Assembly: GCA_947625085.1 (NCBI GenBank)
Contig: CANQMV010000002.1
Coordinates: 1,490 to 65,489, forward strand
Length of the DNA stretch: 64,000 bases
Direction of reading: 5' to 3'
From: an uncultured Bacilli bacterium
GTDB taxonomy: Bacteria; Bacillota_I; Bacilli_A; RF39; UBA660
Notes under the pieces: model-generated
Seen by the model: only the letters and a program-made list of their open reading frames with translations
The model's database searches: none
What the model was told of the DNA's origin: nothing
Translations under genes and position numbers: made by a program
In this document: piece by piece, positions 6,328 to 63,289 of the stretch
Position numbering within the stretch: position 1 is the stretch's first letter
Layout of the letters: every line of letters begins with the position of its first letter

Positions 6328-6333
6328 ATTTAT

Positions 6334-11727: not shown

Positions 11728-11739
11728 TATGGCGAAGAA

Positions 11740-13023: not shown

Positions 13024-13038
13024 AGGAGAGTGATATAA

Positions 13039-14396: not shown

Positions 14397-14409
14397 GAGA
14401 TGATAAGGT

Positions 14410-16148: not shown

Positions 16149-16151
16149 GTT

Positions 16152-16694
16152 ATGGCTTTAACTTTATTAAAAGGTAAAAACGAATTTAATCGTGAAGACC
16201 ATATCACGATGTTTAATTCAAATATCGAAAAAATAGATGAAAATGGTATTGTTTATAATGAAGAAGATGCAACTTGGGTTCCATTTGGAGAAGATAATGA
16301 TGAGATTACAAGAGAAACTAATAATGAAACTGATGCTACCAAGAATGTATTAGGAAGAACAAAAGTAAAACATACACCAGGTCCGCAAACTACTGAAATT
16401 GACCCTATTGCAATCAAAGGCAATGATGCTTTGTCAACAATTCTTTATTATATGTTTAAATATAATTTAACTGGAGATAAGGCGAAACTTCAATGTATGG
16501 AAGTAACTTTAGCTGATGAGCAAGAAGATGGTAGTTATGGTGCATTTACTGAAACAGCTATTGTTAATTTGAATTCTTGGGGTGGAGATACTACTCAATT
16601 AAATAGTCCAATTACATTAAATTGGCTAGATGATAGAGTTCATGGAACTTATAAAACAGCAGATAATAAATTTACACCAACTGTCGCTGAATAA
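16152..16694 (+). CDS. Major tail protein
   Basis: 180 aa, followed by a strong terminator, then the chaperone pair and tape measure. Confidence 0.65.
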   Translation: MALTLLKGKNEFNREDHITMFNSNIEKIDENGIVYNEEDATWVPFGEDNDEITRETNNETDATKNVLGRTKVKHTPGPQTTEIDPIAIKGNDALSTILYYMFKYNLTGDKAKLQCMEVTLADEQEDGSYGAFTETAIVNLNSWGGDTTQLNSPITLNWLDDRVHGTYKTADNKFTPTVAE

Positions 16695-16700
16695 TTTTTT

Positions 16701-16732
16701 GGGGCTTATATAAAATAGCCCCTCATTTTTTT
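16701..16732 (+). terminator. Intrinsic terminator
   Basis: GGGGCT-loop-AGCCCC stem followed by a T-run. Confidence 0.7.
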
Positions 16733-16750
16733 ATAAAGGAAGGGAAAAAT

Positions 16751-17215
16751 ATGAGTTTAATAATAAAAAATAAATTTGTAAAGGAAGAATTAAAAGATGA
16801 AAATGGAAATGTATTAGGTTATTTACAATTTAATCCAAATGATTCAAGAATAATAAATAAATTGTCAAAAATTGTAAATGATTTAAGTAAAGATTTAAAA
16901 CAATTAAATAAAATTGGAGATTTTCCTAATTTATCAGATAAAAAATTAGAAAGCATAGAAGATTTTGAAAATGTAGCAAGTGAATTTGAAAAAATAAACG
17001 AAGCTTTAACAATAGAAGATAAAGCAATCGATAGTGTAATAAATGATTTATCAGAAGTTTTTGGAAGAGATACAATAGAACTATTTACAGGTGGAACTAA
17101 AGATATAATGACAATATTACCTTTGATTGAATTTATTATGCCTTATGTTAAAGAGGCAAGAGAAAAAAATATGAGTAAATATTTAAAAAATGGTAATAGT
17201 GATGTGATGGAATAA
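16751..17215 (+). CDS. Tail assembly chaperone (gpG-like position)
   Basis: Acidic 154-aa protein between the major tail and tape measure genes. Confidence 0.55.
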   Translation: MSLIIKNKFVKEELKDENGNVLGYLQFNPNDSRIINKLSKIVNDLSKDLKQLNKIGDFPNLSDKKLESIEDFENVASEFEKINEALTIEDKAIDSVINDLSEVFGRDTIELFTGGTKDIMTILPLIEFIMPYVKEAREKNMSKYLKNGNSDVME

Positions 17216-17799
17216 TGAATATTCTAACATCGGTGCTACCAAAAAAAATAAAAATAAAAAATAAAATTTATGATATTAATTATGATTATAGAACTATTAT
17301 TAATATTTTAATAGCCTTTGAAGATGTTAATTTAACAAATGTTGAAAAAATGTACATTTTGTTAAAAAACTTTTATAAAGAAGATATTCCAGAAGAAGAA
17401 ACTGAAGAGGCTATTGAAAAGGCAATAAAATTTATAGATTTAGGTAAAATCGATAATAATCAATCAAAGAAATCAAATGTTAGATTATATTCGTTTGAAA
17501 AAGATGGAAATTATATTTTTTCTGGAATTAATTCAACTCATAATATTGATATTGAAAAAGAAACAGATTTACATTGGTGGAAATTTATGCCTTATTTTAT
17601 GGATATGAATCCAGAATGTATGTTTGGAGAATTAACATACTATAGAACTCGTAAAGCTGAAGGTAAATTGACTAAAGATGAAAAGAAGAAATATGAACAA
17701 ATTAAAGATATAATCGAATTAGAAGACGTAAAAGTACAATCAGAAGCTAGAAAAAAATTCTTCGAAGAATATCATAAATCACAAAAAAATAAAAGGTAG
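17215..17799 (+). CDS. Second tail chaperone-position protein (own ATG)
   Basis: ORF track; lies in the -1 frame relative to the previous gene but has its own start. Confidence 0.5.
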   Translation: MNILTSVLPKKIKIKNKIYDINYDYRTIINILIAFEDVNLTNVEKMYILLKNFYKEDIPEEETEEAIEKAIKFIDLGKIDNNQSKKSNVRLYSFEKDGNYIFSGINSTHNIDIEKETDLHWWKFMPYFMDMNPECMFGELTYYRTRKAEGKLTKDEKKKYEQIKDIIELEDVKVQSEARKKFFEEYHKSQKNKR

Positions 17800-17807
17800 G
17801 TGATTTA

Positions 17808-20048: not shown

Positions 20049-20059
20049 GAGGTGATGCA

Positions 20060-20485
20060 CTGAAACAAATAAGAATTAGTAATACGCAAAATGAAAATGA
20101 TTATTTTGATATTCCTTGGGAGTGGTTACCACGAGGAACCCAAGGGCCTACTTTAAATGATTTGGAATCTAGTGCTGAAAGAGGTAAGATGACAGGTGCA
20201 TTGGCAAGAGTAAGATGTGCTGAGGTTCCAGCAGCAACTTTAGATATTGATGAAAGATTAACTCAAAAAGAAATATATCCATTATTAAAATTATTAAAAA
20301 AAGTAGAAATAAATATTAATTATTTTGAAAAATACCTAAATAAATATATAACAATGAAATTTTATGCTAAAAAGCCTAATCCTCCAATTTGGAAAATCCC
20401 AGAAAATGATAATACAGATGATATTATTTATGATACTTTTACAATAGAATTCTCAGGATATGAAGGGATAAATGATAATGATTAA
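20060..20485 (+). CDS. Distal tail protein (Dit-position); probable CTG start
   Basis: Frame is open from 20057. CTG 20060 lies 4 nt after SD AGGAGGTGA. The track start is TTG 20162. Confidence 0.5.
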   Translation: MKQIRISNTQNENDYFDIPWEWLPRGTQGPTLNDLESSAERGKMTGALARVRCAEVPAATLDIDERLTQKEIYPLLKLLKKVEININYFEKYLNKYITMKFYAKKPNPPIWKIPENDNTDDIIYDTFTIEFSGYEGINDND

Positions 20486-22952
20486 AGATTTTGATAATAA
20501 AAAAATTCAAGAATTTGAATATAAAAAAAGTATAAACGTTGATGGTGAAATAATTGGAACTTGTGAATTAGGAACAGCAGAATTTCAAATATTAAATAAT
20601 ACCAACGAATATAATAATTTAAAAGGTCAATGGATAAAGACTATCCATGGCTCTTTTTATATTTATAATGTAGAACCAGTTCAAGAAAAAATTAATATAA
20701 AAATAAGTTGTTATGATATTAAATACAAATTAGATACTCCTTATGATAGCAATTTATATTCGTGGCCTATGAATATGAAAGAATGGAGAAATAAAATAGG
20801 TTTTAATTGTGGTGTAGTATTTGATGATTCTGATTTTCCTAATAGTGATTTAATTTTAGAAAATCAACCATATATCGGAGAAAAACCAAGTAATAGAAAT
20901 GTTATACAACAAATAGCAAAAGCAGGTTGTAGTTTTGTTGATAATGATGAAAATGATATCTTATATTTTAATTGGTTTGAAGATAAAATTTATAAAGTAG
21001 ATGATTGGATAGAATTGACAACAGAAAGTAAAAAAACAGAACCTATAAATGTGGTAGTTTTAGGTCGAGGAGACGTTGAGGATAATGTTTATTGGCCAGA
21101 AGATTTGCCAGAAAATAAAGTTGAATTTAGAATTGATAATAATTATATATTAGACCCTCAAGATACGGAAACAAATTATGATAGAAGATATGATGTTATA
21201 AAATCAATCTATAATAGAGTAAATGGATTTTCATATTTGATATTTAATATGAGAACTCAAAAATTGGAAAAAAGATTATCTTTAAAATTAGGTCAAAAAA
21301 TTTCATATTCAGATATATGGGGTAATACATTAGAAGCTTATGTTATGAGTAAAACAATTAAATATTTAGGTGGAGATTCTACTATTGAAAACAATTATGA
21401 GGTTATTATATCAGCTTCAGAAATTAAAGAAAATTCCAGTGAATTTTCATATGCCTCTAATGTTGAAAAAAGACTTTTATCAGTTTCAAGAAAAACCGAT
21501 AAAAATGGTGGCAAAATAGAGGATTTAGTAAAATCACAAGATGAACAGTCAAAGAGGATGGCTCAATTAGAAATTGATAACAAGAGTATTACAGAAACTG
21601 TTGAAAGTGTACAACAGGATATTAAGAATTTAGAAGATACATATACTTTTAGCACCGATTTAGATATTAGTAATTTAATAATACCATCAAATGAAAGATT
21701 ACCTATAGAAACAGGTGATTTTTTTATTAATTATTATTCGTATTTTAAAGGGAAACAAGTAACTCCAATCGTGAGTATCCCTTCAAAAATAGAAGGATTA
21801 GAGATTACTAGCAATGATTCTCAATTAAAAATATCTGTTAGTTCAGAAACTCCAATTGCTAATCTTAACAACGAAGTTGAAATTAACTTTTTATATACAG
21901 AAGATGATTATGTTTATTCCGCTATGAAAAAGGTTATGATTACATTGGCACCAAAAGGAGTAGATGGTAAAGATGGAGAACCAGGAATACAAGGTCCACC
22001 TGGTGAAGATGGAGAACAAACATATTTTTATGTTAAATATTCCAAAAATTCTACAGGAGAATCAATGACCGATATTCCGAATGAAGAAACTGAATATATG
22101 GGTGTTTCAAGTACAACAAGTTCAATAGCCCCAACAAGTCCTAGTGCATATACATGGTCAAAAATTAAAGGTGAAAATGGAAAAGATGGGGAAAATGGTC
22201 AAAATGGTACTCCTGGTAAAAATGGAGAAGATGGAAGAACATCATATTTACATATTAAATATTCTGATGATGGAGTAACTTTTACAGAAGCAGATGATAT
22301 TTATGGCGAAGGTGAAAGACCAAGTTCATGGCGAGGAGAATATGTTGATTTTACACCAGAAGATAGTATCGAATTTAGTGATTATGAATGGTATAAATTG
22401 ACCGAAAGCATTGATGATACATTAAATGATTTACAAAATCAAATAAATGATACTTCAACAAAATCAGACAACAATTATCAAGATTTAGTTAACCAATTAG
22501 GTGACTATGCCAAAGAAGAAAGCATTACAGAAATAAGAAATCAAGTAACACAATATCAAACTTCAACTGAATCTAATATAACAGTTTTAGAAGAAAGAAT
22601 TAGGGATGGAGTAAAAGAAATTACAACTGAAACTGGGTATACATTTGGAAAAGATGGCTTAAAAATTTCTAAAACTGGTGCTCCAACTGGGTTAACAATT
22701 GATGAAAGTGGCCAAGAAGTAGTCGATAAAACTGGTGCTTCAGAACAAACGTTACAATATAACGGTTATGTTGATGATTCTATTGCAACTAAAACCCCAT
22801 TTTTAGATAATTATAAAGGTCAGACAGTCAACTATTCTAAAAATTTAATTTTTGAACAGTATTTAGCATCTCAAAATTTTAGAATGGAAGAATTTCAAGA
22901 TAGTGAGCAAGGGATTTGTTTAGGATTTTTCTATACTGGAGGTGGTAAATAA
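20472..22952 (+). CDS. Tail-associated (Tal-position) structural protein with collagen-like repeats
   Basis: 826 aa after Dit. Two Gly-X-Y runs (GVDGKDGEPGIQGPPGEDGEQ and GENGKDGENGQNGTPGKNGEDGRT) plus a coiled coil. Confidence 0.7.
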   Translation: MIMIKDFDNKKIQEFEYKKSINVDGEIIGTCELGTAEFQILNNTNEYNNLKGQWIKTIHGSFYIYNVEPVQEKINIKISCYDIKYKLDTPYDSNLYSWPMNMKEWRNKIGFNCGVVFDDSDFPNSDLILENQPYIGEKPSNRNVIQQIAKAGCSFVDNDENDILYFNWFEDKIYKVDDWIELTTESKKTEPINVVVLGRGDVEDNVYWPEDLPENKVEFRIDNNYILDPQDTETNYDRRYDVIKSIYNRVNGFSYLIFNMRTQKLEKRLSLKLGQKISYSDIWGNTLEAYVMSKTIKYLGGDSTIENNYEVIISASEIKENSSEFSYASNVEKRLLSVSRKTDKNGGKIEDLVKSQDEQSKRMAQLEIDNKSITETVESVQQDIKNLEDTYTFSTDLDISNLIIPSNERLPIETGDFFINYYSYFKGKQVTPIVSIPSKIEGLEITSNDSQLKISVSSETPIANLNNEVEINFLYTEDDYVYSAMKKVMITLAPKGVDGKDGEPGIQGPPGEDGEQTYFYVKYSKNSTGESMTDIPNEETEYMGVSSTTSSIAPTSPSAYTWSKIKGENGKDGENGQNGTPGKNGEDGRTSYLHIKYSDDGVTFTEADDIYGEGERPSSWRGEYVDFTPEDSIEFSDYEWYKLTESIDDTLNDLQNQINDTSTKSDNNYQDLVNQLGDYAKEESITEIRNQVTQYQTSTESNITVLEERIRDGVKEITTETGYTFGKDGLKISKTGAPTGLTIDESGQEVVDKTGASEQTLQYNGYVDDSIATKTPFLDNYKGQTVNYSKNLIFEQYLASQNFRMEEFQDSEQGICLGFFYTGGGK

Positions 22953-24346
22953 TGTCACTTTTAAAAGGAACAATAGTTGGTGGTAATGCCAAATATGTTA
23001 ATTATTATCTAGAATATACATTAAATTCACAAAATATTGCCTCTAATACTTCTAATATTACATTGCATATGTATGCACAAGCAACGTCTACTTCTGTTGG
23101 AACTTACAATACTTCTGGTTGTCCAGTAAAGATTTATTATACAAAAAATGGCGTTACAACTAATGTTGTAAATAGAAATCAAGGAATTGATTTTAGAAAT
23201 AAAAAAGTTGTTGATATGGGTAGTTGGACCGGTAATATTGAACATAATTCTGATGGTACATTAACAATTGGTATTGGAGGAAGTTTTTCAGGCACTGGTT
23301 CTTCATGGGTTACATCTGGTACAGTTAGTGGTAACTGGACATTAACAACAATTCCTAGAGCAAGTTCATTTACAGTTTCCAATCCAATTATCGGAGAGAC
23401 AGCAACAATTTCTATAAATAGAGCTAGTAGTGGTTTTACGCATACTTTATCATATTCATTTGGAACTTTAAGTGGTACAATTGCTAGCAATGTAGGTAGT
23501 AGTTGTAATTGGGCAATTCCTACTTCTTTTTATAATCAAATTCCAACATCTACTAGTGGCAATTGTACTATAACTTGTGTTACTTATAGTGGTTCTACTG
23601 AAATTGGTAGAAGTTCTAAAGTAGTTACAATCACATGTAATAAATCTGATTGCATACCAACGTTAAGTGTGACAGTTGTTGATGTTAATTCTAAAACAAC
23701 ATCTTTAACAGGAAATAGTTCAAAATTAGTTAGACATGTTTCTACAGCAAGGATTACTCCAAAGGCAACAGGCAAAAATGGTGCTAGCATTGCTAAAATA
23801 ACAGTTGGTGGAACAACAATAAGTTCATATTTAGATATACCTAACATAAACGAAGATTCTTTTATAGTTACAGCAATAGATAGCCGTGGATATTCAAACA
23901 CAACAATTATATATTTAACTTCATCGATGATTGATTATGTTCTATTAACCTGTAATGCTATTTTTAAAAGAACAACTCAAACAGGTGGAACAGTTCAATT
24001 AGAATATTCAGGTAATTATTTTAATGGAAGTTTTGGTGGAACAAGTAACACTTTAACACTTAAATGGTCTTATAGAGTTAAAGGAAGTTCAAGTTGGATA
24101 ACAGGTGGTAATTTATCACCAACAAAAAGCGGAAATACATATAGCGGCAAAATTACTTGTGGTTCAAATTTTAATTATCAAACAGATTATGAATTTATAA
24201 TTTATTATAGTGATAAATTAAATGACTTAGATACTAAAGCAATACCTCTTTATAAAAGTGTATCTCCATTTGCTATTTGTCAAAATGGGATTTTGCTAAA
24301 TGGTGTATTTTTAGGAGTAGAAATTGTAGATGAATGGGAGGAATAA
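22952..24346 (+). CDS. Tail fibre / receptor-binding protein (S/T/G-rich)
   Basis: 464 aa, beta-rich and low in charge. Position after Tal. Confidence 0.55.
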   Translation: MSLLKGTIVGGNAKYVNYYLEYTLNSQNIASNTSNITLHMYAQATSTSVGTYNTSGCPVKIYYTKNGVTTNVVNRNQGIDFRNKKVVDMGSWTGNIEHNSDGTLTIGIGGSFSGTGSSWVTSGTVSGNWTLTTIPRASSFTVSNPIIGETATISINRASSGFTHTLSYSFGTLSGTIASNVGSSCNWAIPTSFYNQIPTSTSGNCTITCVTYSGSTEIGRSSKVVTITCNKSDCIPTLSVTVVDVNSKTTSLTGNSSKLVRHVSTARITPKATGKNGASIAKITVGGTTISSYLDIPNINEDSFIVTAIDSRGYSNTTIIYLTSSMIDYVLLTCNAIFKRTTQTGGTVQLEYSGNYFNGSFGGTSNTLTLKWSYRVKGSSSWITGGNLSPTKSGNTYSGKITCGSNFNYQTDYEFIIYYSDKLNDLDTKAIPLYKSVSPFAICQNGILLNGVFLGVEIVDEWEE

Positions 24347-24371
24347 AAAATGTATAAAATTACAAAAACTA

Positions 24372-24399
24372 TTGACACAATAAACAGTTGTGCTACGAT
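24372..24399 (+). promoter_or_regulatory. Promoter-like element
   Basis: TTGACA (24372-77), 16-nt spacer ending in TGc, then TACGAT (24394-99). The predicted TSS falls at the start of the ACAT repeat. Confidence 0.35.
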
Positions 24400-24444
<45 letters not shown>

Positions 24445-24512
24445 AGTGCTTACGCACAAAAACAAATTACAAAAACTCCGAAAGGAGGATTTTAGGGGCA
24501 TAGGTGATTTAA

Positions 24513-24875
24513 TTGGCTGAAGTTAAATCATTTAAATTTAAAAATACTTATTTAGATTTATCAGGCATAAATGCAAAGGGAATTATAAAAATTGTTGATT
24601 CAGCCTTAACTATTCCTACTCCAACAAGGGCAGGACAAGGTGGATATATTAATCAAGTAGTAACGATACCATCAGGTTATACATCTATTTCGGCTATTTT
24701 TGAAAGTTCATCAATAAGTGATTCCTCTGGTCTTCAGTTAACACCAATTTATGGCTTTTTAAATAAAACCGGTTCAACTACTGTTTGGGTTCAATATTAT
24801 TCGCCGAATATAATTAATAATGCCGATGCATTAAGAATAAAACTTATTTGTATAAAAAGCAGTCTATTAAGTTAA
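24513..24875 (+). CDS. Small beta-rich tail-fibre-associated protein (TTG start)
   Basis: ORF track. SD AGGTGA. N-terminal KSFKFKN motif is shared with the next ORF. Confidence 0.5.
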   Translation: MAEVKSFKFKNTYLDLSGINAKGIIKIVDSALTIPTPTRAGQGGYINQVVTIPSGYTSISAIFESSSISDSSGLQLTPIYGFLNKTGSTTVWVQYYSPNIINNADALRIKLICIKSSLLS

Positions 24876-24897
24876 TAATTGTCCTTAATAAAAAGAT

Positions 24898-25287
24898 ATG
24901 AAAAGCATAAAATTTAAAAATAATATGTTTTTTGATGGAGAAATATGTGACATTGGGTCAAATGCAAATAATACTTATGTAAAATGGGCTAATGGATTGA
25001 TGATATGTTTTAGAATAACTGAAGAAAATTCAGCATCATATCAGTTTAAATGGGGAGAGCATTATGTATTTAAAATACCATATGCTTATGATTTTCCAGA
25101 AAAGTTTATAGAACCACCTTTTTTGATGTATGATATATTACCAACATCAAATTATGGTTGTTATAAAATAGGATATGCTTCACCAACCGTTACAGCTAAT
25201 AGTATTTCAGATTTATATGTCGCAAGAACGGATGCTTCATCATACACATATAAAATTTGGTTTCTAGCTATTGGTTATTGGAAATAA
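24898..25287 (+). CDS. Small beta-rich tail-fibre-associated protein (paralogous N-terminus KSIKFKNN)
   Basis: ORF track. Confidence 0.5.
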   Translation: MKSIKFKNNMFFDGEICDIGSNANNTYVKWANGLMICFRITEENSASYQFKWGEHYVFKIPYAYDFPEKFIEPPFLMYDILPTSNYGCYKIGYASPTVTANSISDLYVARTDASSYTYKIWFLAIGYWK

Positions 25288-25308
25288 ATAGGAAAGGTAG
25301 GTAATAAA

Positions 25309-25608
25309 TTGGAAAAATTTATGAAAAAATTAAAAAAATACTGGGGGTGGACAACTTTAACGGTAACTATATTAGCAGCCATTTTTGGTTGCTTTTTTAA
25401 AGTATTTAAATATTTTGATGAACAAAATGAAGAAATGGCTGAAACTCAAAAAATAGCTCAACAAGCTTTAATTTGGAATAAAGAAATCCCGACAGTTCAA
25501 AGAGCAGAAGTATGTGATATTTATTTGTCAAAAGGATTTGATAGTTACACAAAAAAGTTGTGTGAAAATGTAATTTTAGCAGATGAAAGTTTAAAAGTAG
25601 AAAGGTAG
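25309..25608 (+). CDS. Single-TM membrane protein (lysis-cassette position)
   Basis: ORF track. TM segment WTTLTVTILAAIFGCFF. Confidence 0.45.
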   Translation: MEKFMKKLKKYWGWTTLTVTILAAIFGCFFKVFKYFDEQNEEMAETQKIAQQALIWNKEIPTVQRAEVCDIYLSKGFDSYTKKLCENVILADESLKVER

Positions 25609-25617
25609 GAGACATAT

Positions 25618-25878
25618 ATGGAAATAACATTTGAATTAATATTTTCTGTTGTAACAGCAGTATTAACCGCATTATTAGGTACATTCTTTAAAGATAGAGT
25701 AGTACCAGCAAGATTTATTCCAATTCAAAATATCATAATTGGATTAATTGCAGCATTTGTTGCTGTATATTATGGCTTATTTAATGATGTAGCAACAGCA
25801 ATAATCATATCATTAGCATTATCACTTGGGGTTGGTGGTGCGTATGATGCTTTAAAAACTAAAAAAGAGGAGAAATAG
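25618..25878 (+). CDS. Holin
   Basis: 86 aa with 2-3 TM helices and a charged C-terminus (KTKKEEK). Lies immediately upstream of the endolysin. Confidence 0.75.
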   Translation: MEITFELIFSVVTAVLTALLGTFFKDRVVPARFIPIQNIIIGLIAAFVAVYYGLFNDVATAIIISLALSLGVGGAYDALKTKKEEK

Positions 25879-25881
25879 TAT

Positions 25882-26625
25882 ATGAGTAAATATGTTCAAG
25901 ATAATGAATGGGGTACTAAGTATCCAAATTTTAGAAAGGAAGAATTTAAGTGTCCATGCTGTGGTTCATATGGAAATGGTATAGCTACAACTTTACTAGA
26001 TACTTTACAAGAATTAAGAACGAGAACAGGTAAAGCTATAAATATTTCAAGTGGTTACAGATGTTCAAAATTCAATAAAAAAGTAGGTGGAGCTGTTAAT
26101 TCAGCACATATGAAAGGTTCAGCCGCTGATTTTTATTTTGCAGATGGAAGTTTAGGTAATCAAAATACAAGAATATCCTTAGTAAATGAATTAAAAAAAA
26201 CTAAATATTATCATTGGTGTTATTGTAATGTAAATGGAAATTATCCAAACATGGGAGCAGCAATTCATTTTGATAGCCAATTAATAGATTCAACATCTTC
26301 AAGCAGAGAAGAAAGAGTTAAATCACTTCAAAGAGCGTTAAATGCCGACTACAAATGCGGATTAGTTGTCGATGGTTCATTTGGTCCTTTAACAGAGAAT
26401 GCAAGTCATAACAATTATTTATATTATCTAAAAAAAGGAGCTACTAACCATATTAAGTGGCTACAAACTAGATTAATTGAATTAGGTTATTCTGTAGGTA
26501 GTAGTGGAGTAGATGGTTCGTTTGGACCTGATACTTTAGCAGCAGTTAAGAAGTTCCAAAAAGATAAAGGACTTATAATTGATGGAAATGTTGGAAAGGC
26601 AACTCATAAAGAATTAATTAAATAG
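25882..26625 (+). CDS. Endolysin: peptidase M15A-type domain plus two PG_binding_1 repeats
   Basis: N-terminus FRKEEFKCPCCG..SGYRC..NSAHMKGSAADF has the M15 zinc motifs. C-terminus carries a duplicated LQ..L..G....DG.FGP.T motif. Confidence 0.85.
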   Translation: MSKYVQDNEWGTKYPNFRKEEFKCPCCGSYGNGIATTLLDTLQELRTRTGKAINISSGYRCSKFNKKVGGAVNSAHMKGSAADFYFADGSLGNQNTRISLVNELKKTKYYHWCYCNVNGNYPNMGAAIHFDSQLIDSTSSSREERVKSLQRALNADYKCGLVVDGSFGPLTENASHNNYLYYLKKGATNHIKWLQTRLIELGYSVGSSGVDGSFGPDTLAAVKKFQKDKGLIIDGNVGKATHKELIK

Positions 26626-38134: not shown

Positions 38135-38203
38135 ATGTATAAAATAGATGTAAATTATGAAGAAAAAGAAGTTGACAATTTGTCAACCTGGGGGGGGGTA
38201 TAG
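38135..38203 (+). CDS. Leader uORF copy 1 (22 aa, MYKIDVNYEEKEVDNLSTWGGV) containing the palindrome and G9 tract
   Basis: SD AGGATG lies upstream. Inverted repeat GTTGACA-ATT-TGTCAAC at 38171-87. G9 at 38190-98. TAG at 38201-03. The C-terminus and nucleotide core are conserved in copies 2 and 3. Confidence 0.6.
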   Translation: MYKIDVNYEEKEVDNLSTWGGV

Positions 38204-38242
38204 TACTTAAATATCAACTAAATTCTCAAAAATTAAAAGAGT

Positions 38243-38293
38243 AACACTTAAAAAATTGGTAAGAAATTTACCAAATTTTTAGGTGTTTTTTTA
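38243..38293 (+). terminator. Leader terminator copy 1
   Basis: 20-bp stem AACACTTAAAAAATTGGTAA / TTACCAAATTTTTAGGTGTT (one G-U pair, one mismatch), loop GAAAT, then T7. Lies 25 nt before ATG 38318. Confidence 0.8.
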
Positions 38294-38317: not shown

Positions 38318-41305
38318 ATGAATAAAAAAAGTATAATAATTAGTCTAATCGTTTTAACAATCGTATTAATAATTGGAAGTAGTTATGCTTATTTAAAAGC
38401 AGAACGTGAATCTGAAGAACAAAGTTTAAGTATGAAAAACTTTGGAGTAATTTTATTAAAAGATATGGTTTCTGTAACACTAGATAAAACAGTGCCAATG
38501 AGTGATGAAGATGGAATATATAATGAAAGTACAACTTTTGAAATTCAAAATACCGGAAATGTATCAGCAAATTACAAAGTAAGTTTAGTTGATAAAGAAA
38601 CTAAAAGTACAATGAGTAATAATGATATAAGATATCGATTAACTAGGATAAGTTCAATAGATAATACCAAAGAAACTTTTGAAATCAGAAATTTAGATAG
38701 CAACGGAATAATTGATGAAGGAGTAATTGAAGTATCTGAAATAATAACTTATGAAATAGTATTATGGATAGATATAGATGCTAATCCATTAGGTCAAACT
38801 TTTAATAAAGTAGTAGAAGTAGATGCATTTCAAAATAATTCTCTTGATAGAAGTGGAGCTAATCCGCCTGAAATGCTTGCTAGTATGATACCCGTATATT
38901 ATGAAAAACAAACAGATGAAAGTGGAATATGGAAAATTGCTGATATAACCAATAGAAATAAACATTATGCATGGTATAACTATGCTGATTATAAAAAAAG
39001 TGATGCTGAAGATGTAAAAACAATGGTAGCAACTATTTTACCAAGTGGAGATATATCATTAGATGGAACAGATGATTATGTTAATTTAGGATATGAAAAT
39101 TATGATTTTAAAAATAATATTAGTGTAGTAGCAAGATTTAAAGTAAATAGTTTTCCAAGTAATTTTTTTGGTTATATAATAGGAAATGCAGAAGGAGCTG
39201 GTTTTTATTTTGGTGTATTAAATAATAAGAAAATTCGAGTAGGAATTCATGTAAATGGTGGTTATAAAGATTTAACTTCTACAATGACGATAAATGGAAA
39301 TACTTGGTATACAGTAGTCGCCACTTATGATAACAATAAAATTAAATTATATATATATCAAAATGGTAGTTTATTAGAAGAAAATGAAATGTCAGTTACA
39401 GGAGCAATAAAACCTTCAATTGCACCATTAATGTTAGGTGGAAATCCTGGTGTTGATGGAAAACCTTATGGAGAATTCTTAAATTATATAATAAGTGATA
39501 CATTAGTTTACACAGATACGTTAACTGATACCGAAATAAAAAATTATTTTACAAATGAGATAATAGATTATCCAAAAGATAATTTACTAGTTGAAAAAAT
39601 AGGCTTTTTAGAAAGCGAATCTAACAGGTGGGCTAATGTTATAACCTTGAAAGAAGGGGAAAGAAAATTAGTTGATGAAACCTTCACTAGTATTCCAGAT
39701 ACAAAATATTATGAAATTTTAGATAATGGAGATATTTATTTAGATGGAGTTAATGATTTTTATAATTTAGGTCATGCTAATGAAGAATTAGGAAGTAATA
39801 TTAGTTTAGTTGCAAGATTTAAATTAAATAGTTTAAACAATGAAACCCGTATAATTTCCAATACCCAAGGTGGAGGATGTATGATACGAATTCTGTCAAC
39901 TAAAAAAATTGGCTTTAGTATTCATATTAATGGAGCCTATCGTGATCTTATGAGTACTAATTTAATTGAGGTAGGAAAGTGGTATACAGTAGTTGCTACC
40001 TACGATAATTCTAAAATGAAACTTTATGTTTATCAAGAAGGAAAACAAATTGAAACTAAAGAGCAAGAACAAACTGGTGCAATAACTAAATCAGCAGCTC
40101 CTTTTACGCTAGGCTCTGAACCAGATGCCTTTGGATTTCCTGTAGATATTACTTCTATAAATGGAACAATAAGTAAGGCAATAATATATAAAGATACTTT
40201 AACTTTAGAAGAAATTACTAATAATTTTACTAATGAAATAACAAATTATCCTGAAGATAATATTTTAATAGATGTTGGAAAGGGAAAATATATTGAACAA
40301 AAGAATTATTATACAATAAATGACCAAGGAGAAATAACTTTTAATGGGCAAGATAATTTTTTAAATCTTGGCTATGAAAATTATGATTTTAAAAATAATG
40401 TTAGCCTTGTTACTAAATTTAAGATATTTTCTTTAAATAAAAGCAATAATAGTTTAATTGGAAATGCTGAAGGTGGTGGTATAAGTCTTTATGTAAATAA
40501 TAATAATATTAGATTTGAAGTTCATACGGGAGGAAGTTATCATTACCTTGCAAGTGATATGACAATTAACGAAAATAAATGGTATACGGCAGTAGGAACT
40601 TATGATGGAAGTAAAATGAAATTATATATCTATCAAGATGGAAAACAACTGGAAGTTAAAGAACAAGCTCAAACTGGTGCAATAACTAAATCACCTGCTC
40701 CTTTAATGTTAGGTGGTAATCCTAATGCTTATGGTTTTCCTACTGATAGTTTTCTAAATGGTTCTATAAGTTCAACCTATGTCTATAATGATACTTTAAC
40801 TGATATGGAAATTGAAAGTATCGGAAATGATATAAAACAATATCCAAAAAATAACTTATTAATAGCTTATGAAGATTTTAAAGAAAAAAGTGAAAGAGAA
40901 ATTTTATTAAAATCTGAACCAGGAACTGAGATTAAGACGGAAAATATAGCAAATGTATGGGTTTGGATACCAAGATTTAAATATAATAGTTTAAATGAAA
41001 GTGTTAATTTTTCAAATGGAATCAAAAAAGAAGAAACTACTCTGCAAGCATTTACCAATGAAAATAAAGAACTAGTAGGTTTTTATGTAAGTAAAGAAGA
41101 TATAAATAATTTAGAAGAAGTAAAACAAAATATAATAGATAATAATAAAAATTATGAGGTTCATACAATAAATGATAATGAAAAAGCAGCCGCCAATTAT
41201 CTTTTAAATTCAAAATATGGAAATAAATCTCAGTTGGGAAACACTTTAACTAATAATCGAGCAGTTATTGATATATACCATGAATTTCCTTGGCTTAACG
41301 AATAG
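38318..41305 (+). CDS. Large secreted/anchored protein (paralog A)
   Basis: Domain order: N-terminal anchor, beta-sandwich domain, three LamG/ConA-like repeats, and a truncated FGE-like C-terminus. The N-terminus MNKKSIIISLIVLTIVLIIGSSYAYL resembles SipW/camelysin-type signals. Each LamG-like repeat has DG.DD/NF.NLG....NIS.VA.FK...WYTVVATYD..K.KLY.YQ.G. The C-terminus carries WVWIPRFKY and ..LVGFYVSKE.. homologous to paralog B. Confidence 0.8.
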   Translation: MNKKSIIISLIVLTIVLIIGSSYAYLKAERESEEQSLSMKNFGVILLKDMVSVTLDKTVPMSDEDGIYNESTTFEIQNTGNVSANYKVSLVDKETKSTMSNNDIRYRLTRISSIDNTKETFEIRNLDSNGIIDEGVIEVSEIITYEIVLWIDIDANPLGQTFNKVVEVDAFQNNSLDRSGANPPEMLASMIPVYYEKQTDESGIWKIADITNRNKHYAWYNYADYKKSDAEDVKTMVATILPSGDISLDGTDDYVNLGYENYDFKNNISVVARFKVNSFPSNFFGYIIGNAEGAGFYFGVLNNKKIRVGIHVNGGYKDLTSTMTINGNTWYTVVATYDNNKIKLYIYQNGSLLEENEMSVTGAIKPSIAPLMLGGNPGVDGKPYGEFLNYIISDTLVYTDTLTDTEIKNYFTNEIIDYPKDNLLVEKIGFLESESNRWANVITLKEGERKLVDETFTSIPDTKYYEILDNGDIYLDGVNDFYNLGHANEELGSNISLVARFKLNSLNNETRIISNTQGGGCMIRILSTKKIGFSIHINGAYRDLMSTNLIEVGKWYTVVATYDNSKMKLYVYQEGKQIETKEQEQTGAITKSAAPFTLGSEPDAFGFPVDITSINGTISKAIIYKDTLTLEEITNNFTNEITNYPEDNILIDVGKGKYIEQKNYYTINDQGEITFNGQDNFLNLGYENYDFKNNVSLVTKFKIFSLNKSNNSLIGNAEGGGISLYVNNNNIRFEVHTGGSYHYLASDMTINENKWYTAVGTYDGSKMKLYIYQDGKQLEVKEQAQTGAITKSPAPLMLGGNPNAYGFPTDSFLNGSISSTYVYNDTLTDMEIESIGNDIKQYPKNNLLIAYEDFKEKSEREILLKSEPGTEIKTENIANVWVWIPRFKYNSLNESVNFSNGIKKEETTLQAFTNENKELVGFYVSKEDINNLEEVKQNIIDNNKNYEVHTINDNEKAAANYLLNSKYGNKSQLGNTLTNNRAVIDIYHEFPWLNE
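39040..40870 (+). repeat. Three tandem ~600-680-bp intragenic repeats (LamG-like modules)
   Basis: Repeat cores start near 39060, 39740 and 40340. The 24-mer CAAACTGGTGCAATAACTAAATCA occurs at 40070 and 40670, exactly 600 nt apart. Confidence 0.8.
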
Positions 41306-43664: not shown

Positions 43665-45698
43665 ATGGATTTAGTAATAGTTGAATCCCCAGCTAAAAGT
43701 AAAACAATTGAAAAATACCTTGGAAAAAATTATAAAGTTGTAAGTAGTATAGGTCATATTCGCGATTTAGCAACAACTGGTAAATATGGACTTGGAATAG
43801 ATATAGATAATAACTTTACCCCTAATTATGTACCAATTAAAGGTAAAAAGAAAGTTATAAGTGATTTAAAAAAATTAGTTAAAGAAGCTTCCAAAGTTTA
43901 TCTTGCAACCGACCCCGACCGAGAAGGGGAAGCTATTTCTTGGCATTTATATGATACCCTTGGCATTAAAAATAAAGACTATTCAAGAGTCTTATTTTAT
44001 GAAATTACTAAAGATAAAGTTTTAGAGGGAATCCAAAAGCCTCGAAAAATTGATTATAATTTAGTTAAGAGTCAAGAGACAAGGCGTTTTTTAGACCGAA
44101 TTATTGGATTTAGACTTAGTAAACTTATGCAATCAAAGACTAGTGGAACAAGTGCTGGTCGGGTTCAAAGTGTTGCTTTAAAATTAATCGTTGATAGAGA
44201 AAGAGAAATTGCAGCTTTTAAAAGTGAGGAGTATTATACTGTTACTGCCTTTTTTAACGATTTTGCTGAACCTTTTACTTCAGAACTTTTTAAATATAAA
44301 GAAGCGGATATTGAGATAAAAACTGAAAATGAAGCTAAAGAGATACTAGCCAAGTTAAGTGCTAATTTCAAATTAGAAAACATTGAAACGAAAACGAAAA
44401 ATAAAGCTAGTAAATTTCCATTTACAACGTCAACTTTGCAACAAGAAGCTTCAACTAAACTTAATTTTAATGCTAAAAAAACGATGATGTTAGCTCAAAA
44501 AATGTATGAAGGTATTGATATAGGTAGTGAAACTGTCGGATTAATTACTTATATGCGTACGGATTCTATTCGGTTAAGTGATGAATTTACAGGTAGTGCT
44601 TTTAAATATATTGAAGAAAAATTTGGAAAAGAGTTTGTTGGGTATATTAAAAGAAGTAAAAAAACTGAAAATGTTCAAGATGCTCATGAAGCAATAAGAC
44701 CAACAAGTATTTTAAGAGAACCTAAAGATTTAGAAAAATATTTAACAGCTGATGAATTTAAATTATATAATTTGATATATAAACGAACACTTGCTTCTTT
44801 GATGAGTGATGCTAAAACTTTAGCAACAACCATCATTCTAGATAACAATGATTATAAGTTTAAAACAACTGGTTCAGTGGTTACTTTTAAAGGTTATTTA
44901 GATGTTTATCAAGAGTTTGAAGATACAAAAGATACGATTTTACCAGATTTAAATGCTAAATTAAATCAAGAAATTGAATCTTCAGAAATTAAATATGAAC
45001 AACATTTTACTAAGCCTAAGCCAAGATATACTGAAGCAAGATTAATTCATGAAATGGAAGAGTTAGGAATTGGAAGACCTTCAACTTATGCAACTATTAT
45101 GTCTAATATAAGAGATCGTGGTTATGTAATTTTGGAAGATAAAAAATTTGTTCCAACTGAAGTTGGAATTCAAGTAACAGATCGCTTGCAGGAATATTTT
45201 AGTAATATTATTAATGTTCGTTATACTGCTAATATGGAAGAAGATTTAGATAAAATTGCTCAAGGTGAATTAAATAATTTAGAGGTTTTAACTAATTTTT
45301 ATCAAATTTTTGATGAAACTCTTCAAAAGGCTTTTAAGGGAATGGAAAAAGAAAAACCTGAAGAAACCGGAGAAGTTTGTCCTGAATGTGGTAATCCTTT
45401 GGTAGTTCGAAAAGGAAGATATGGGGAATTTGTTGCATGTAGTAATTATCCAAATTGTAAATATATAAAAAAAGAAACTCCAGATATTAAAGAAATTATT
45501 GATTGTCCAAACTGTTCTGGTAAAATTGTTGAGAAGCATACTAAAAAAGGTAAAGTTTTTTATGGTTGCAATAATTTTCCAAAATGTAAAACTGCATATT
45601 GGGATATGCCAACTGGGGAGTTATGCCCTAATTGCAACGAAATGTTAGTTAAGAAAAATGATAAAATTAAATGTTCAAAATGTGATTACGAAAGGTAA
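43665..45698 (+). CDS. topA: DNA topoisomerase I
   Basis: TOPRIM N-terminus (LVIVESPAK..DPDREGEAI), active-site YMRTDS, and C-terminal CxxC zinc ribbons. Confidence 0.95.
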   Translation: MDLVIVESPAKSKTIEKYLGKNYKVVSSIGHIRDLATTGKYGLGIDIDNNFTPNYVPIKGKKKVISDLKKLVKEASKVYLATDPDREGEAISWHLYDTLGIKNKDYSRVLFYEITKDKVLEGIQKPRKIDYNLVKSQETRRFLDRIIGFRLSKLMQSKTSGTSAGRVQSVALKLIVDREREIAAFKSEEYYTVTAFFNDFAEPFTSELFKYKEADIEIKTENEAKEILAKLSANFKLENIETKTKNKASKFPFTTSTLQQEASTKLNFNAKKTMMLAQKMYEGIDIGSETVGLITYMRTDSIRLSDEFTGSAFKYIEEKFGKEFVGYIKRSKKTENVQDAHEAIRPTSILREPKDLEKYLTADEFKLYNLIYKRTLASLMSDAKTLATTIILDNNDYKFKTTGSVVTFKGYLDVYQEFEDTKDTILPDLNAKLNQEIESSEIKYEQHFTKPKPRYTEARLIHEMEELGIGRPSTYATIMSNIRDRGYVILEDKKFVPTEVGIQVTDRLQEYFSNIINVRYTANMEEDLDKIAQGELNNLEVLTNFYQIFDETLQKAFKGMEKEKPEETGEVCPECGNPLVVRKGRYGEFVACSNYPNCKYIKKETPDIKEIIDCPNCSGKIVEKHTKKGKVFYGCNNFPKCKTAYWDMPTGELCPNCNEMLVKKNDKIKCSKCDYER

Positions 45699-45711
45699 AA
45701 GAATTACATAA

Positions 45712-45743
45712 AAGAATTTAGAAATAATTTAAATTCTTTTTTG
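45712..45743 (+). terminator. topA terminator
   Basis: AAGAATTTA..TAAATTCTT stem followed by T6. Confidence 0.65.
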
Positions 45744-45798
45744 CTTGATTAAATTCTAAAAATATTGTATTCTTAATATAAGAATAGGAGAACTTGAG

Positions 45799-45876
45799 AT
45801 GGAAAATAAGTTAAAATATTATAAAAATTATCAAAGAAAAGAAGTTGACAAATTGTCAACCATGGGGGGGGGATAG
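45799..45876 (+). CDS. Leader uORF copy 2 (25 aa, MENKLKYYKNYQRKEVDKLSTMGGG)
   Basis: SD AGGAG. Palindrome GTTGACA-AAT-TGTCAAC at 45844-60. G9 at 45864-72. TAG at 45874-76. Confidence 0.6.
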   Translation: MENKLKYYKNYQRKEVDKLSTMGGG

Positions 45877-45915
45877 TACTTAAATATCAAGTAAATCCTT
45901 TGAACTTAAAAGAAT

Positions 45916-45966
45916 AACACTTAAAAAATTGGTAAGAAATTTACCAAGTTTTTAGGTGTTTTTTTA
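45916..45966 (+). terminator. Leader terminator copy 2
   Basis: Near-identical to copy 1 (20-bp stem plus T7). Lies 23 nt before ATG 45989. Confidence 0.8.
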
Positions 45967-45988
45967 AGTTTATTTAGGAGGATGAAAG

Positions 45989-47443
45989 ATGAAAAATAAA
46001 AGAAATTTAATCTTAGTAATTATGGTAATTACAATAATAAGTATTATTTATGTAAAGGTAGATAAAGAAATTAATTTACAAAAAGAAGTAGGAAAAGCAA
46101 TTATTAGTAAGCAAGAAGTAAATGCCGGAGAAGAAAACTATAAAGATGCAACTTTAAAAGGAGCAGACCCAGTTATTAGTGGTAAGTTAATCCCGGTAAC
46201 AATTGATAAAAAAGGGAAAGTAACATATGCCAATATAAAAAAAGAATGGTATAACTATCAAAAGAAAGAGTGGGCTAATGCAGTAATCTTAGTAGATAAT
46301 CCCAGTTTAAACTATAAAGTTGGCAGTGAAATAAAAGAAAGTGATATTGAAAGTTATTTTGTTTGGATACCAAGGTTTAAGTATAAGTTATGGAATGCAA
46401 ATCAAAAAGATGGAAATTATTCTATAGGAAATATAACTGACGATGCAAATTCCTTAACATCATATCGAATGCTTTTTGGAAATACAAGACTAATCGAAAT
46501 AGAGTTTGAAAATAATAAAACAAATAAATCAAATAATACAACTAATGGAGAGTGGCTAACTCATCCAGCCTTTACCTTAAATGGCAAAGAATTAAATGGA
46601 ATTTGGGTTGGTAAATTTGAAACTGGTTATAATCAAGGGGATTCTGGAAAGCCAATTGAAAATACAACAACATGGACATTTGCTAAAGCCCAAGTTGATA
46701 AAGTTGAAAGCGATAAAATAATAGTAAAACCAAACGTTTATTCATGGCGAAATTCAACAGTTTCTAACTTTTTTAAAAGTGCCTATAACTATAACCGAGA
46801 TTTAGATAGTCATATGATGAAAAATACCGAATGGGGAGCAGTCGCTTATTTATCACATTCTTTATATGGAATTGGAAAAGAAATAAATATTAACAATAAT
46901 AATCAATATAAAACAGGTTACTCAGCCGTTATTGGAACCGACCAAAGTAGTTATACGGGAACTGCTGGAACTACATCTAATATAACTTTACCTTATAATA
47001 CTCCAACCGGTTATCTGGCATCAACAACTGGAAATATAACCGGAGTCTATGATATGAGTGGAGGAACTCACGAATATATGGCTGCCTATAGACCATCTTC
47101 AACTAAAGATGAAAGTGGTTTTACAGAAGAAGAATTAACGAAATATGCTGCTTATTTAGATAAGTATGAAAATGCAACCACAACATCATATAGTAAAAAA
47201 ATCTTAGGAGATGCAACGGGAGAGATGGGCCCATTTTATTACTACTTTGATAAAGATAATTCTAAAAGATATCATAATGCCTGGTTCGCCGACATGTCGC
47301 ACTTTGTTGACTCCACTGGTCCGTGGTTCGATCGTGGCGGCGGTCACACGGACGGAGTAATCGCTAGTCAGTTCTACTTCGCTAGGTACACTGGTACGAC
47401 CTACACTTACATCGCCACTCGGCTTGTAGTTACAGGAATTTAA
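45989..47443 (+). CDS. Secreted/anchored protein (paralog B) with an FGE-sulfatase/C-type-lectin-like C-terminal domain
   Basis: N-terminal TM anchor and FVWIPRFKY motif. ..HPAF..G.ELNGIWVGKFE.., ..NTEWGAVAYL.., GVYDMSGGTHEYM and ..RGGG..R..TRLVV resemble the FGE/CLec fold seen in DGR targets. Confidence 0.75.
   Translation: MKNKRNLILVIMVITIISIIYVKVDKEINLQKEVGKAIISKQEVNAGEENYKDATLKGADPVISGKLIPVTIDKKGKVTYANIKKEWYNYQKKEWANAVILVDNPSLNYKVGSEIKESDIESYFVWIPRFKYKLWNANQKDGNYSIGNITDDANSLTSYRMLFGNTRLIEIEFENNKTNKSNNTTNGEWLTHPAFTLNGKELNGIWVGKFETGYNQGDSGKPIENTTTWTFAKAQVDKVESDKIIVKPNVYSWRNSTVSNFFKSAYNYNRDLDSHMMKNTEWGAVAYLSHSLYGIGKEININNNNQYKTGYSAVIGTDQSSYTGTAGTTSNITLPYNTPTGYLASTTGNITGVYDMSGGTHEYMAAYRPSSTKDESGFTEEELTKYAAYLDKYENATTTSYSKKILGDATGEMGPFYYYFDKDNSKRYHNAWFADMSHFVDSTGPWFDRGGGHTDGVIASQFYFARYTGTTYTYIATRLVVTGI
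47279..47440 (+). other. Compositionally aberrant 3' segment (last 54 codons): DGR variable-region-like
   Basis: Sharp switch from AT-rich to about 55% GC. 22 of 54 codons are NNC (GCC TTC GCC GAC CAC GAC TCC TTC GGC GGC CAC GAC ATC TTC TAC TTC TAC ACC TAC TAC ATC GCC). Confidence 0.55.
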
Positions 47444-47463
47444 AAATTATAGTAATTATTAAA

Positions 47464-47511
47464 ATATAGTAAAATAGATGTTAAATAAACTAAAATTACT
47501 ATATTTTTTTT
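47464..47511 (+). terminator. Probable terminator
   Basis: ATATAGTAA..TTACTATAT 9-bp stem (large loop) followed by T7. Confidence 0.45.
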
Positions 47512-47544
47512 ATTAACTATGGTAAAATTATTTTGGGTGTTTGT

Positions 47545-48567
47545 ATGGAAAATATATACAATAAAACATTTAATGAATTAAATGAGTACTTTAAACAACT
47601 TGGAGAAAAGACCTATCGTACTCGTCAAGTATTTGATTGGTTATATATAAAAAGAATTAAAGATTTTCAAGAAATGACCAATTTAAAAAAAGAAATTATT
47701 GAAAAATTAAAAACAGATTTTTTTATTGATGATATAGAAATTATTAAAAAAGAAAGTGATGTACTTGTTAATAAATATTTATTAAAATTAAAAGATGCAA
47801 ATACAATTGAAGCGGTTTTAATGCAACATGATTACGGAAATAGTTTATGTATCTCTTCAGAAGTTGGTTGTAATATGGCTTGCTCTTTTTGTGAATCTGG
47901 AAGAATTAAAAAAATCCGTAACGTTTCAAGTGGTGAGATGGTTTTACAAATTTTAAAAATTGAAAAAGATTTAAATATTCGTATTTCTCATGTTGTTATA
48001 ATGGGAATTGGCGAACCATTTGATAATTATCAAAATATTTGCAAATTTATAGAAACTGTTAATTCTCCGTTTGGAATTAATTTAGGAAGTAGGCATATAA
48101 CTGTTTCAACTTGTGGAATTGTTCCAAAAATTTACGAATTTTCAAACTTTCCTTATCAAGTAAATTTAGCAATTAGTCTTCATGCCCCAAACGATACTTT
48201 AAGAAGCAAATTAATGCCAATTAATAAAGCATATAATTTAAAAAGTTTAATTGAGGCCGTTAAAAAGTATATAGAAAAAACAAATAGACGAGTTACTTTC
48301 GAATATATTATGTTAGATAAGGTAAATGATACCGAAGAATGTGCCATAGAACTTGCTAATTTATTAAAAGGACTTAATGCTTATGTTAATTTAATCCCTT
48401 ATAACGAAACAAATAATATAGGCTATAAAAGAAGTTCAAAAGAACGAATTTTAAAGTTTTATGATTGTTTAAAAAAGCATAATATTAGTGTTACAATCAG
48501 AAAAGAATTTGGTTCAAAAATTAGTGCTGCTTGTGGACAGTTAAAGACAATTAAGGAGGCTTCATGA
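47545..48567 (+). CDS. rlmN: 23S rRNA/tRNA A2503 methyltransferase RlmN (radical SAM)
   Basis: CNMACSFCESG radical-SAM motif and a typical ..YR..Q...W.. N-terminus. Start is ATG 47545 or TTG 47533. Confidence 0.9.
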   Translation: MENIYNKTFNELNEYFKQLGEKTYRTRQVFDWLYIKRIKDFQEMTNLKKEIIEKLKTDFFIDDIEIIKKESDVLVNKYLLKLKDANTIEAVLMQHDYGNSLCISSEVGCNMACSFCESGRIKKIRNVSSGEMVLQILKIEKDLNIRISHVVIMGIGEPFDNYQNICKFIETVNSPFGINLGSRHITVSTCGIVPKIYEFSNFPYQVNLAISLHAPNDTLRSKLMPINKAYNLKSLIEAVKKYIEKTNRRVTFEYIMLDKVNDTEECAIELANLLKGLNAYVNLIPYNETNNIGYKRSSKERILKFYDCLKKHNISVTIRKEFGSKISAACGQLKTIKEAS

Positions 48568-63133: not shown

Positions 63134-63199
63134 ATGGTTAAAATAGAAAAATTAAGTCAAAAAGAAGTTGACAAATTGTCAACCTGGGGGGGGGTATAG
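63134..63199 (+). CDS. Leader uORF copy 3 (21 aa, MVKIEKLSQKEVDKLSTWGGV)
   Basis: SD GAAGGTGA. Palindrome GTTGACA-AAT-TGTCAAC at 63167-83. G9 at 63186-94. TAG at 63197-99. Confidence 0.6.
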   Translation: MVKIEKLSQKEVDKLSTWGGV

Positions 63200-63245
63200 T
63201 ACTTAATTTAAAGGGTAACTGTATTTTAAAAATAGACAAAATAAG

Positions 63246-63289
63246 ACACATAAAACTAGTAGAATAAGACTAGGTTTTATGTGTTTTTA
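63246..63289 (+). terminator. Leader terminator copy 3 (different sequence, same position)
   Basis: ACACATAAAACTAGT / ACTAGGTTTTATGTGT stem (1-nt bulge), loop AGAATAAG, then T5. Confidence 0.7.

Follow-up and report, generated by a model that had tools for sequence, protein, structure and literature searches.

The 64,000-nucleotide stretch of DNA analyzed here (the window; all positions are counted from its first letter) is part of contig CANQMV010000002.1, positions 1,490 to 65,489 of the forward strand, in assembly GCA_947625085.1 from an uncultured Bacilli bacterium. It carries a gene for a protein of 484 amino acids whose last codons differ sharply in composition from the rest of the gene and are, judging from sequence comparisons with relatives, almost certainly the variable region (VR) of a diversity-generating retroelement (DGR). 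The N terminus of the protein is a signal anchor (MKNKRNLILVIMVITIISIIYV), and its ectodomain is a divergent FGE-sulfatase/C-type-lectin-like sequence. The gene is preceded by a short leader open reading frame (ORF) that ends in a run of guanines and by a long hairpin, and hairpins also follow its 3' end (Table 1).

Table 1. Features of the putative DGR target gene and its flanks
Feature	Position	Strand	Basis
Leader ORF, 25 codons, MENKLKYYKNYQRKEVDKLSTMGGG*	45799..45876	+	
Palindrome GTTGACAAATTGTCAAC in the leader ORF	45844-45860	+	
G9 tract ending the leader ORF	45864-45872	+	
Long terminator-like hairpin and T-run, between the leader ORF and the target gene	45916..45965	+	RNA fold
Putative DGR target gene, 484 amino acids	45989..47443	+	ORF list
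GVYDMSGGTHEYM, motif of the putative lectin-like fold	47042..47080	+	HMMER alignment to 5VF4
Predicted VR, ~153 nt, TTC GCC GAC to GTT ACA GG	47285..47437	+	Limits by homology to relatives' template and variable repeats
Span of 14 hypervariable codons	47288..47413	+	Column entropy, 120 homologs
Weak AT-only hairpin, 10 bp with one mismatch, 3-nt loop	47439..47463	+	DNA fold
Terminator-like hairpin and T-run closing the target gene	47461..47511	+	

The composition of the gene changes abruptly near its 3' end. Codons 431 to 484 (positions 47279-47440) have a GC content of 0.54, compared with 0.30 in codons 1 to 430, and a GC content at third codon positions (GC3) of 0.59, compared with 0.18, while adenine drops from 0.42 upstream to 0.19 in the tail. 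Codons of the form NNC account for 22 of the 54 tail codons versus 41 of the 430 codons upstream (Fisher p = 3.4e-8), and their fraction in four neighboring genes is 0.05 to 0.07. An earlier note, written from the sequence of the window alone, had described this tail as abruptly GC rich and rich in NNC codons, and the difference is indeed far beyond chance. In windows of 150 nt, GC peaks at 0.56 over 47191-47472, the strongest GC island of the 64 kb (mean 0.26, standard deviation 0.053), and windows of 30 nt place the GC-rich block at approximately 47279 to 47432. The sole other stretch above 0.42 is 20085-20267 (0.433), which lies directly 3' of a prophage tape-measure ORF. This GC bump was considered as a template repeat (TR) and rejected; it has no match to the VR and by eye is AT-poor coding sequence.

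A search of 5.8 billion proteins returned more than 7,975 homologs of the window protein, and the alignment statistics given here come from 120 listed homologs. The best of these (P0002 to P0004; P numbers designate homologs and L numbers contigs) are 78 to 85% identical to the window protein, and the bulk are 55 to 60% identical. In the homologs a highly conserved ectodomain gives way at the C terminus to invariant residues interspersed with hypervariable ones. Three of them, P0006 (L005), P0005 (L006), and P0017 (L009), which are 58 to 60% identical to the window protein, are encoded next to DGR machinery. The order on each of these contigs is target gene, a 0.5- to 0.7-kb spacer with the TR, a MutS_I ORF, bAvd (PF22296), and an RVT_1 reverse transcriptase (RT) of 341 to 350 amino acids. 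Within the spacer, the final ~150 nt of the target gene are repeated. The MutS_I ORF encodes a stand-alone MutS domain I of 122 to 125 amino acids (L005 12209-12586, L006 5675-6052, and L009 12283-12651), lies between TR and bAvd in each cassette, and corresponds to the MutS-like (MSL) accessory gene described by Wu et al. 2018. The spacer copy and the copy in the target gene mismatch at 13 of 40 TR adenines in L005, 11 of 35 in L006, and 19 of 34 in L009, and at none of the non-A positions (0/100, 0/105, and 0/106, respectively). These repeats are textbook TR/VR pairs.

The tail of the window gene shows codon-for-codon homology to these repeats. No gaps are needed to align positions 47287-47426 with the VRs and TRs of L005, L006, and L009, and the window tail and the relatives' repeats have in common the scaffold W-F-x-R-G-G...Q-F-x-F-x-R...R-L-V. 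The window VR has a GC content of 0.56, an adenine content of 0.18, and a GC3 of 0.63. Fourteen of its codons are hypervariable in the alignment of the homologs, with 9 to 14 residue types and an entropy of 2.3 to 3.5 bits in each column, and these are the sites at which the relatives' TRs carry AAY. In the window gene they read 434 GCC, 436 ATG, 438 CAC, 444 GGT, 448 GAT, 452 GGT, 454 ACG, 455 GAC, 463 TAC, 465 GCT, 467 TAC, 472 TAC, 474 TAC, and 475 ATC; all 14 are substituted and none is AAY. Between them, W446, R449, G450-451, and F464 are invariant, and S437, F439, G456, Q461, F462, G469, and R478 are kept in at least 90% of the homologs. At 13 of the 14 sites (all except 434), 99.3% of the residues in the homologs are among the 15 amino acids that can be reached from AAY, compared with 79.9% elsewhere in the protein. 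Two homologs from different samples, P0010 and P0017, have no differences in the 529 residues upstream but 12 in the 49 residues of the VR (all but one of the 12 fall on hypervariable sites), and this difference represents live diversification within the family. Thus, the site-restricted hypervariability at NNC codons that the earlier note had proposed to look for is present at the level of the family. Its central proposal, that the tail is a DGR variable region, is borne out by the gap-free homology to VRs that adjoin a TR, bAvd, and an RVT_1 RT and that differ from their templates at TR adenines only. The sequence evidence makes it nearly certain that the window tail is a genuine VR.

In the mechanism that we propose, the target protein would be held in the membrane by its N terminus and would display a C-type-lectin/FGE-like domain, the last ~50 residues of which would form a ligand-binding surface. 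An RT acting with bAvd and the small MutS-like protein would copy the RNA of the noncoding template repeat, template adenines would be misread during copying, and the resulting cDNA would overwrite the VR. AAY-templated codons would thereby become random NNY codons, whereas the A-poor scaffold would be rewritten unchanged. The combination of AAY-templated mutagenesis and an A-poor scaffold would account for a tail that is GC rich, A poor, and rich in NNC codons in a genome of 26% GC.

The earlier note had also placed the tail in the context of a lectin or FGE fold. The motif on which that assignment was based, GVYDMSGGTHEYM, does align by HMMER with GIADLVGNVWEWVAG (GIADLVGNVWEW) of 5VF4; the fold itself was not confirmed, the models being poor. 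The window protein has no family match in Pfam or NCBIfam, FGE-sulfatase (PF03781) has weak matches among the relatives (14 of 36; best E 2.6e-5), and the sole match of the window protein in PDB is 5VF4, which is marginal (E 0.0046). AlphaFold gave a predicted local distance difference test (pLDDT) score of 59.6 with 120 homologs, with the C terminus below 50, and a score of 36.6 for residues 185-484 with 40 homologs, with the C-terminal domain below 50; the models were too poor for a fold search. Because both AlphaFold runs gave poor models, it is weak sequence similarity that suggests a lectin fold for the target protein.

5VF4 is TaqVP, the variable protein of a Thermus aquaticus DGR (bioRxiv 10.1101/432187), and it is the only solved structure matched by either the window protein or the family profile. 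The aligned motifs are THPAF/HPAF, MKNTEWGAVA/MTNAEWAAVA, and GVYDMSGG..EY/GIADLVGNVWEW. However, with E values of 0.0046 and 0.048 the resemblance is marginal, and the VR lies outside the aligned stretch.

No DGR machinery accompanies the target gene in the window. Ungapped scans of both strands of the 64 kb with the 162-nt tail and three sub-segments revealed no TR, the best match being 63/162, which is at chance level. Likewise, blastn-short with the tail and a degenerate pattern in which A was allowed at every non-A position recovered only the self match from the 64 kb. Neither tblastn nor hidden Markov models (HMMs) of the three relatives, applied to six-frame fragments, detected an RT, Avd, or MSL in the 64 kb (best E 0.033). 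The statement in the earlier note that the window has neither a second copy of the segment nor an RT was therefore correct, and so was its caveat that a DGR target at this position would be remote or an orphan.

With no TR or RT near the target, the template would have to lie elsewhere. At 23 to 28 non-A positions the window tail disagrees with the TRs of the three relatives, and therefore its own template must be a different, clade-specific one. Such divergence is expected at 58% protein identity because the TRs of L005, L006, and L009 differ among themselves at 14 to 24 non-A positions. A TR-consistent pattern had no match in the JGI metagenomes, and the viral contigs of IMG/VR contained neither relatives of the target protein nor the VR/TR pattern. 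With no viral relatives, and with a prophage block in the window that has no RT, the DGR does not appear to be phage borne. We infer that a cognate TR and RT are present in another part of the genome and that homing would still be going on.

The composition of VRs in this family gives an indication of their age. The GC-rich VRs with available DNA, those linked to cassettes and that of L001, have a GC content of 0.54 to 0.60 and a GC3 of 0.54 to 0.59, whereas fossil VRs have values of 0.36 to 0.39 and 0.22 to 0.30. The background GC3 of the window genome is 0.12 to 0.18. The window VR, with its GC3 of 0.63, has not drifted toward 0.12 to 0.18, and thus its last rewriting is recent when measured by synonymous change. 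Contig L004, which carries two paralogous targets (883-2616 and 10001-11749) and no RT within 21.7 kb, provides an internal control for a dead VR, both of its VRs being fixed and ameliorated toward AT. The VR of one of them, P0053, has a GC content of 0.36 and a GC3 of 0.22, and that of the second, with a GC content of 0.39, contains the residues M, Q, E, and K. An unlinked VR can also stay close to a template, as exemplified by L001. The VR of L001 is GC rich, there is no RT within 10 kb of it, and it equals the TR of L009 at 104 of 106 non-A positions, with gene bodies that are 87% identical.

DGR targets are also marked by sequences just 3' of the VR. The target-recognition elements at this end, as reportedly described by Guo et al. 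in 2011, are a GC-rich end resembling the initiation of mutagenic homing (IMH) sequence and a nearby hairpin or cruciform. In L005, L006, and L009 the VR is followed by a perfect AT-rich hairpin of 9 to 13 bp with a 4-nt loop (z -2.0 to -5.2). These hairpins start 8 to 14 nt into the folded 50-nt stretches, the first 9 to 11 nt of which are TR/VR homology. A GC-rich terminator hairpin is found ~25 nt beyond the AT-rich hairpin on the same three contigs. No hairpin of the AT-rich type follows the unlinked VRs of L001 and L004.

We favor, with modest confidence, the interpretation that the genome carries a chromosomal MSL-Avd-RT DGR and that the window gene is a remote, recently homed target of it. 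Several observations weigh against this interpretation. TR, RT, Avd, and MSL are all missing from the 64-kb window, so that the TR cognate to the window VR was not found there. The hairpin that follows the window VR is unremarkable (-3.1 kcal/mol, z -1.3), with 24 of 200 shuffled sequences as stable. Two of the hypervariable codons, ATG at 436 and ACG at 454, end in G and are unreachable from AAY; M436 is one of only 11 AAY-unreachable residues at the hypervariable sites of the 120 homologs. Many family members have fixed VRs, for example P0053, the identical protein of which is present on 23 contigs. The closest relative, P0002 (85% identity), has a truncated or frameshifted VR (...FVES ITRG LFVVVVSQTE), which could reflect either true decay or mis-assembly of a heterogeneous VR. 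P0003 and P0004 differ by 6% in the VR and by 13% elsewhere, and the VR being less divergent than the rest demonstrates that stasis occurs in this sub-clade. Finally, structure prediction did not confirm the lectin fold (pLDDT 59.6 and 36.6).

Much of this would also be expected if the gene were a recent orphan, that is, if a DGR wrote the tail but the lineage has since lost the TR-MSL-Avd-RT cassette, leaving the tail as an ordinary, slowly decaying coding region. We regard this as a serious alternative, although the less probable one. The lack of machinery within 64 kb, a 3' hairpin that is weak here and strong at the cassette-linked VRs, the truncated VR of P0002, and the stasis of P0003 and P0004 are all consistent with it, and fossil VRs are clearly present in the family, as in the two paralogs of L004. 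The AAY-unreachable M436 (ATG) and a T454 encoded by ACG, the third base of which is not AAY templated, could be read as the first signs of decay. However, decay in this genome would be biased toward AT, and both codons end in G. P0002 carries K at site 436, which suggests that the template has AAG at this position, and the ATG of the window gene fits such a clade-specific template codon. Furthermore, the GC3 of the window VR is unameliorated when compared with either the genomic background or the known fossils, and loss of the cassette would need to have been very recent. It is highly improbable that the tail is not DGR derived at all but is a segment of foreign composition that was acquired horizontally or by recombination, or that stems from a chimeric assembly, because although the shift in composition is abrupt and contigs of metagenome-assembled genomes can be chimeric (L002 looks chimeric at a paralog boundary), frame and homology are continuous across the boundary in all 120 aligned homologs except the truncated P0002, and relatives show this shift at the same codons, coinciding exactly with the TR/VR repeats.

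The contigs of relatives provided further observations on unlinked VRs. The identical protein P0036 is found in two upstream contexts, L001 and L002. Ahead of the gene, which starts at 10001 on L001, L002, and L009 alike, L002 shares 99% identity with L009, whereas from the gene start on it matches L001 completely (100%). L002 was considered as evidence of cassette loss and rejected because it looks like a chimeric join. The pattern in L001, L002, and L009 represents either a recurrent assembly chimera at paralog boundaries or true recombination between paralogs. A scan of genome contigs with a 21-base core of the VR/TR revealed another unlinked VR-like tail of the clade on L007 (DBNY01000056.1, Bacillales bacterium UBA660; 2561-2950, minus strand). 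This tail, SPWFIRGGPFTGGSGAGVFSFSIRWGGTSSDIGFRPVLIV, belongs to a different lectin-type protein and has a GC content of 0.58 and an adenine content of 0.11 on a contig of 31% GC. No TR was found on its 2.9-kb contig, and the gene that follows the tail is presumably a pyruvate kinase gene, from its translation as read by eye. The same scan also recovered L008, a Planctomycetia contig of 68% GC, which was rejected as a chance match.

The leader ORF upstream of the target gene is part of a repeated module. Runs of at least seven G or C residues occur exactly three times in the 64 kb, at 38190, 45864, and 63186, and each is inside one copy of the module. The copies extend over 38135-38292, 45799-45965, and 63134-63288, and the leader ORFs of the other two are 38135-38203 and 63134-63199. 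Copies are also present in L006, at 2922-3082 (plus strand) and ~100-315 (minus strand), with tracts of G10 and G9, and one of these is upstream of the cassette-linked DGR target of that contig. The module starts with a leader ORF of 21 to 25 codons that ends ...KEVD(K/N)LST(W/M)GG(V/G)* and contains a perfect palindrome of 17 nt, GTTGACAA(A/T)TTGTCAAC. The G tract makes up the last codons of the ORF, the hairpin and its T-run follow 40 to 70 nt on, and then come a Shine-Dalgarno (SD) sequence and the start of a surface-protein gene. The genes that follow the three window copies are 38318..41305, with three Laminin_G_3 domains, the DGR target gene, and a gene for a signal-anchor protein from 63360. 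The hairpin is kept in all five copies, with eight pairs changed on both sides. The RNA fold of 45790-45995 has a stability of -47.9 kcal/mol (z -5.2), and its extended stem pairs CCUUU... (~45894) with the SD sequence AGGAGG (45976-45981) of the target gene.

The reading frames of the module suggest a regulatory function. In all five copies, exactly one tract-length frame remains open as far as the hairpin, with its stop codon at the foot, within the hairpin, or at its end, and the other two frames stop within 1 to 10 codons of the tract. At present all three window copies have a short frame; with G10 or G7 at 45864 the leader frame would extend to 45915-45917, at the base of the hairpin. On the basis of this arrangement, the module may be a slipped-strand switch that operates via translation-coupled anti-termination. 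The G9 or G10 tract would set the leader frame, one frame would bring ribosomes into the hairpin that acts as terminator and sequesters the SD sequence, and slipped-strand mispairing would gate transcription read-through. The same switch would control at least three surface-protein genes in the window genome.

Slipped-strand phase variation at homopolymeric tracts and transcription attenuation by leader peptides are both known principles. The module resembles both, with a G9 or G10 tract ending a leader ORF, a terminator hairpin next, and a surface-protein gene after it. Among the papers returned by a full-text literature search, no title or abstract combined the two principles in one module, and to our knowledge a switch in which tract length sets a leader frame that steers ribosomes into a terminator has not been described. 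Rfam had no match in 45650-47600 at E values up to 1, and the pattern of the module had no match in metagenomes. The earlier note had suggested that the poly-G leader would stack a second variation mechanism on the gene. The G9 tract does belong to a conserved, repeated leader-ORF/terminator module; the switching is conjecture from this arrangement, no polymorphism in tract length having been observed at any single locus. Placing one surface-protein gene under two independent systems, a DGR with a remote template and a poly-G ON/OFF switch, is accordingly a tentative proposal that we consider rather unlikely to be correct in full.

The surroundings of the target gene do not appear to be viral. 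From translations read by eye, we take the gene upstream (43665..45698) to be topoisomerase I-like and the gene downstream (47533..48567) to be probably rlmN. The target gene thus probably sits between housekeeping genes rather than within a phage or prophage. A siphovirus-like prophage late-gene block, recognized with PHROGs, is present at ~6650-26625 and has neither an RT nor a TR. It includes genes for the small and large terminase, portal, minor head, scaffold, major head, tape measure, tail, and endolysin. Three tRNA genes (5996-6404) directly before this block are the sole Rfam matches of the 64 kb at gathering thresholds.

DGRs with MutS-like (MSL), avd, and RT genes have been designated 'Architecture D' (Wu et al. 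2018, NAR 46:11, PMC5758913), and non-phage DGRs are documented to have remote targets, at distances of more than 100 kb from their RT (PMC5758913). The cassettes of the relatives are like Architecture D in having target, TR, MSL, bAvd, and RT on one strand, a target of the putative FGE-sulfatase/C-type lectin (CLec) type, and mismatches at A only. The difference is that the window contains the target gene only. The DGR of Treponema denticola (TvpA) is similar in having a surface protein with a C-terminal VR, of a lectin fold that is putative for the window protein, and targets scattered in core-genome contexts (PMC5758913), and the window family also has several paralogous targets per genome, for example the two of L004. 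However, the accessory domain is HRDC in Treponema and MSL here (PMC5758913), and for the window gene we infer the link between the remote VR and its TR.

The DGR architecture, the MutS-like accessory genes, and remote targets have thus already been described, and the biology at this locus is conventional hypervariation of a ligand-binding surface protein. What the window gene adds is a large, unnamed family of DGR targets with more than 7,900 members, for which no Pfam domain is on record among the 120 matches listed and none of the sources gives a functional name, and whose members stem from very AT-rich, Bacilli-like metagenome-assembled genomes. Within this one family, GC3 and adenine content alone separate VRs that are linked to cassettes, VRs that are unlinked but fresh, and fossil VRs. 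This composition criterion is a practical way to spot remote DGR targets that are missed by pipelines anchored on the RT. More unusual as a lead is the poly-G module. Should it prove to be a phase switch, switching of expression and diversification of the binding site would act on one and the same gene.

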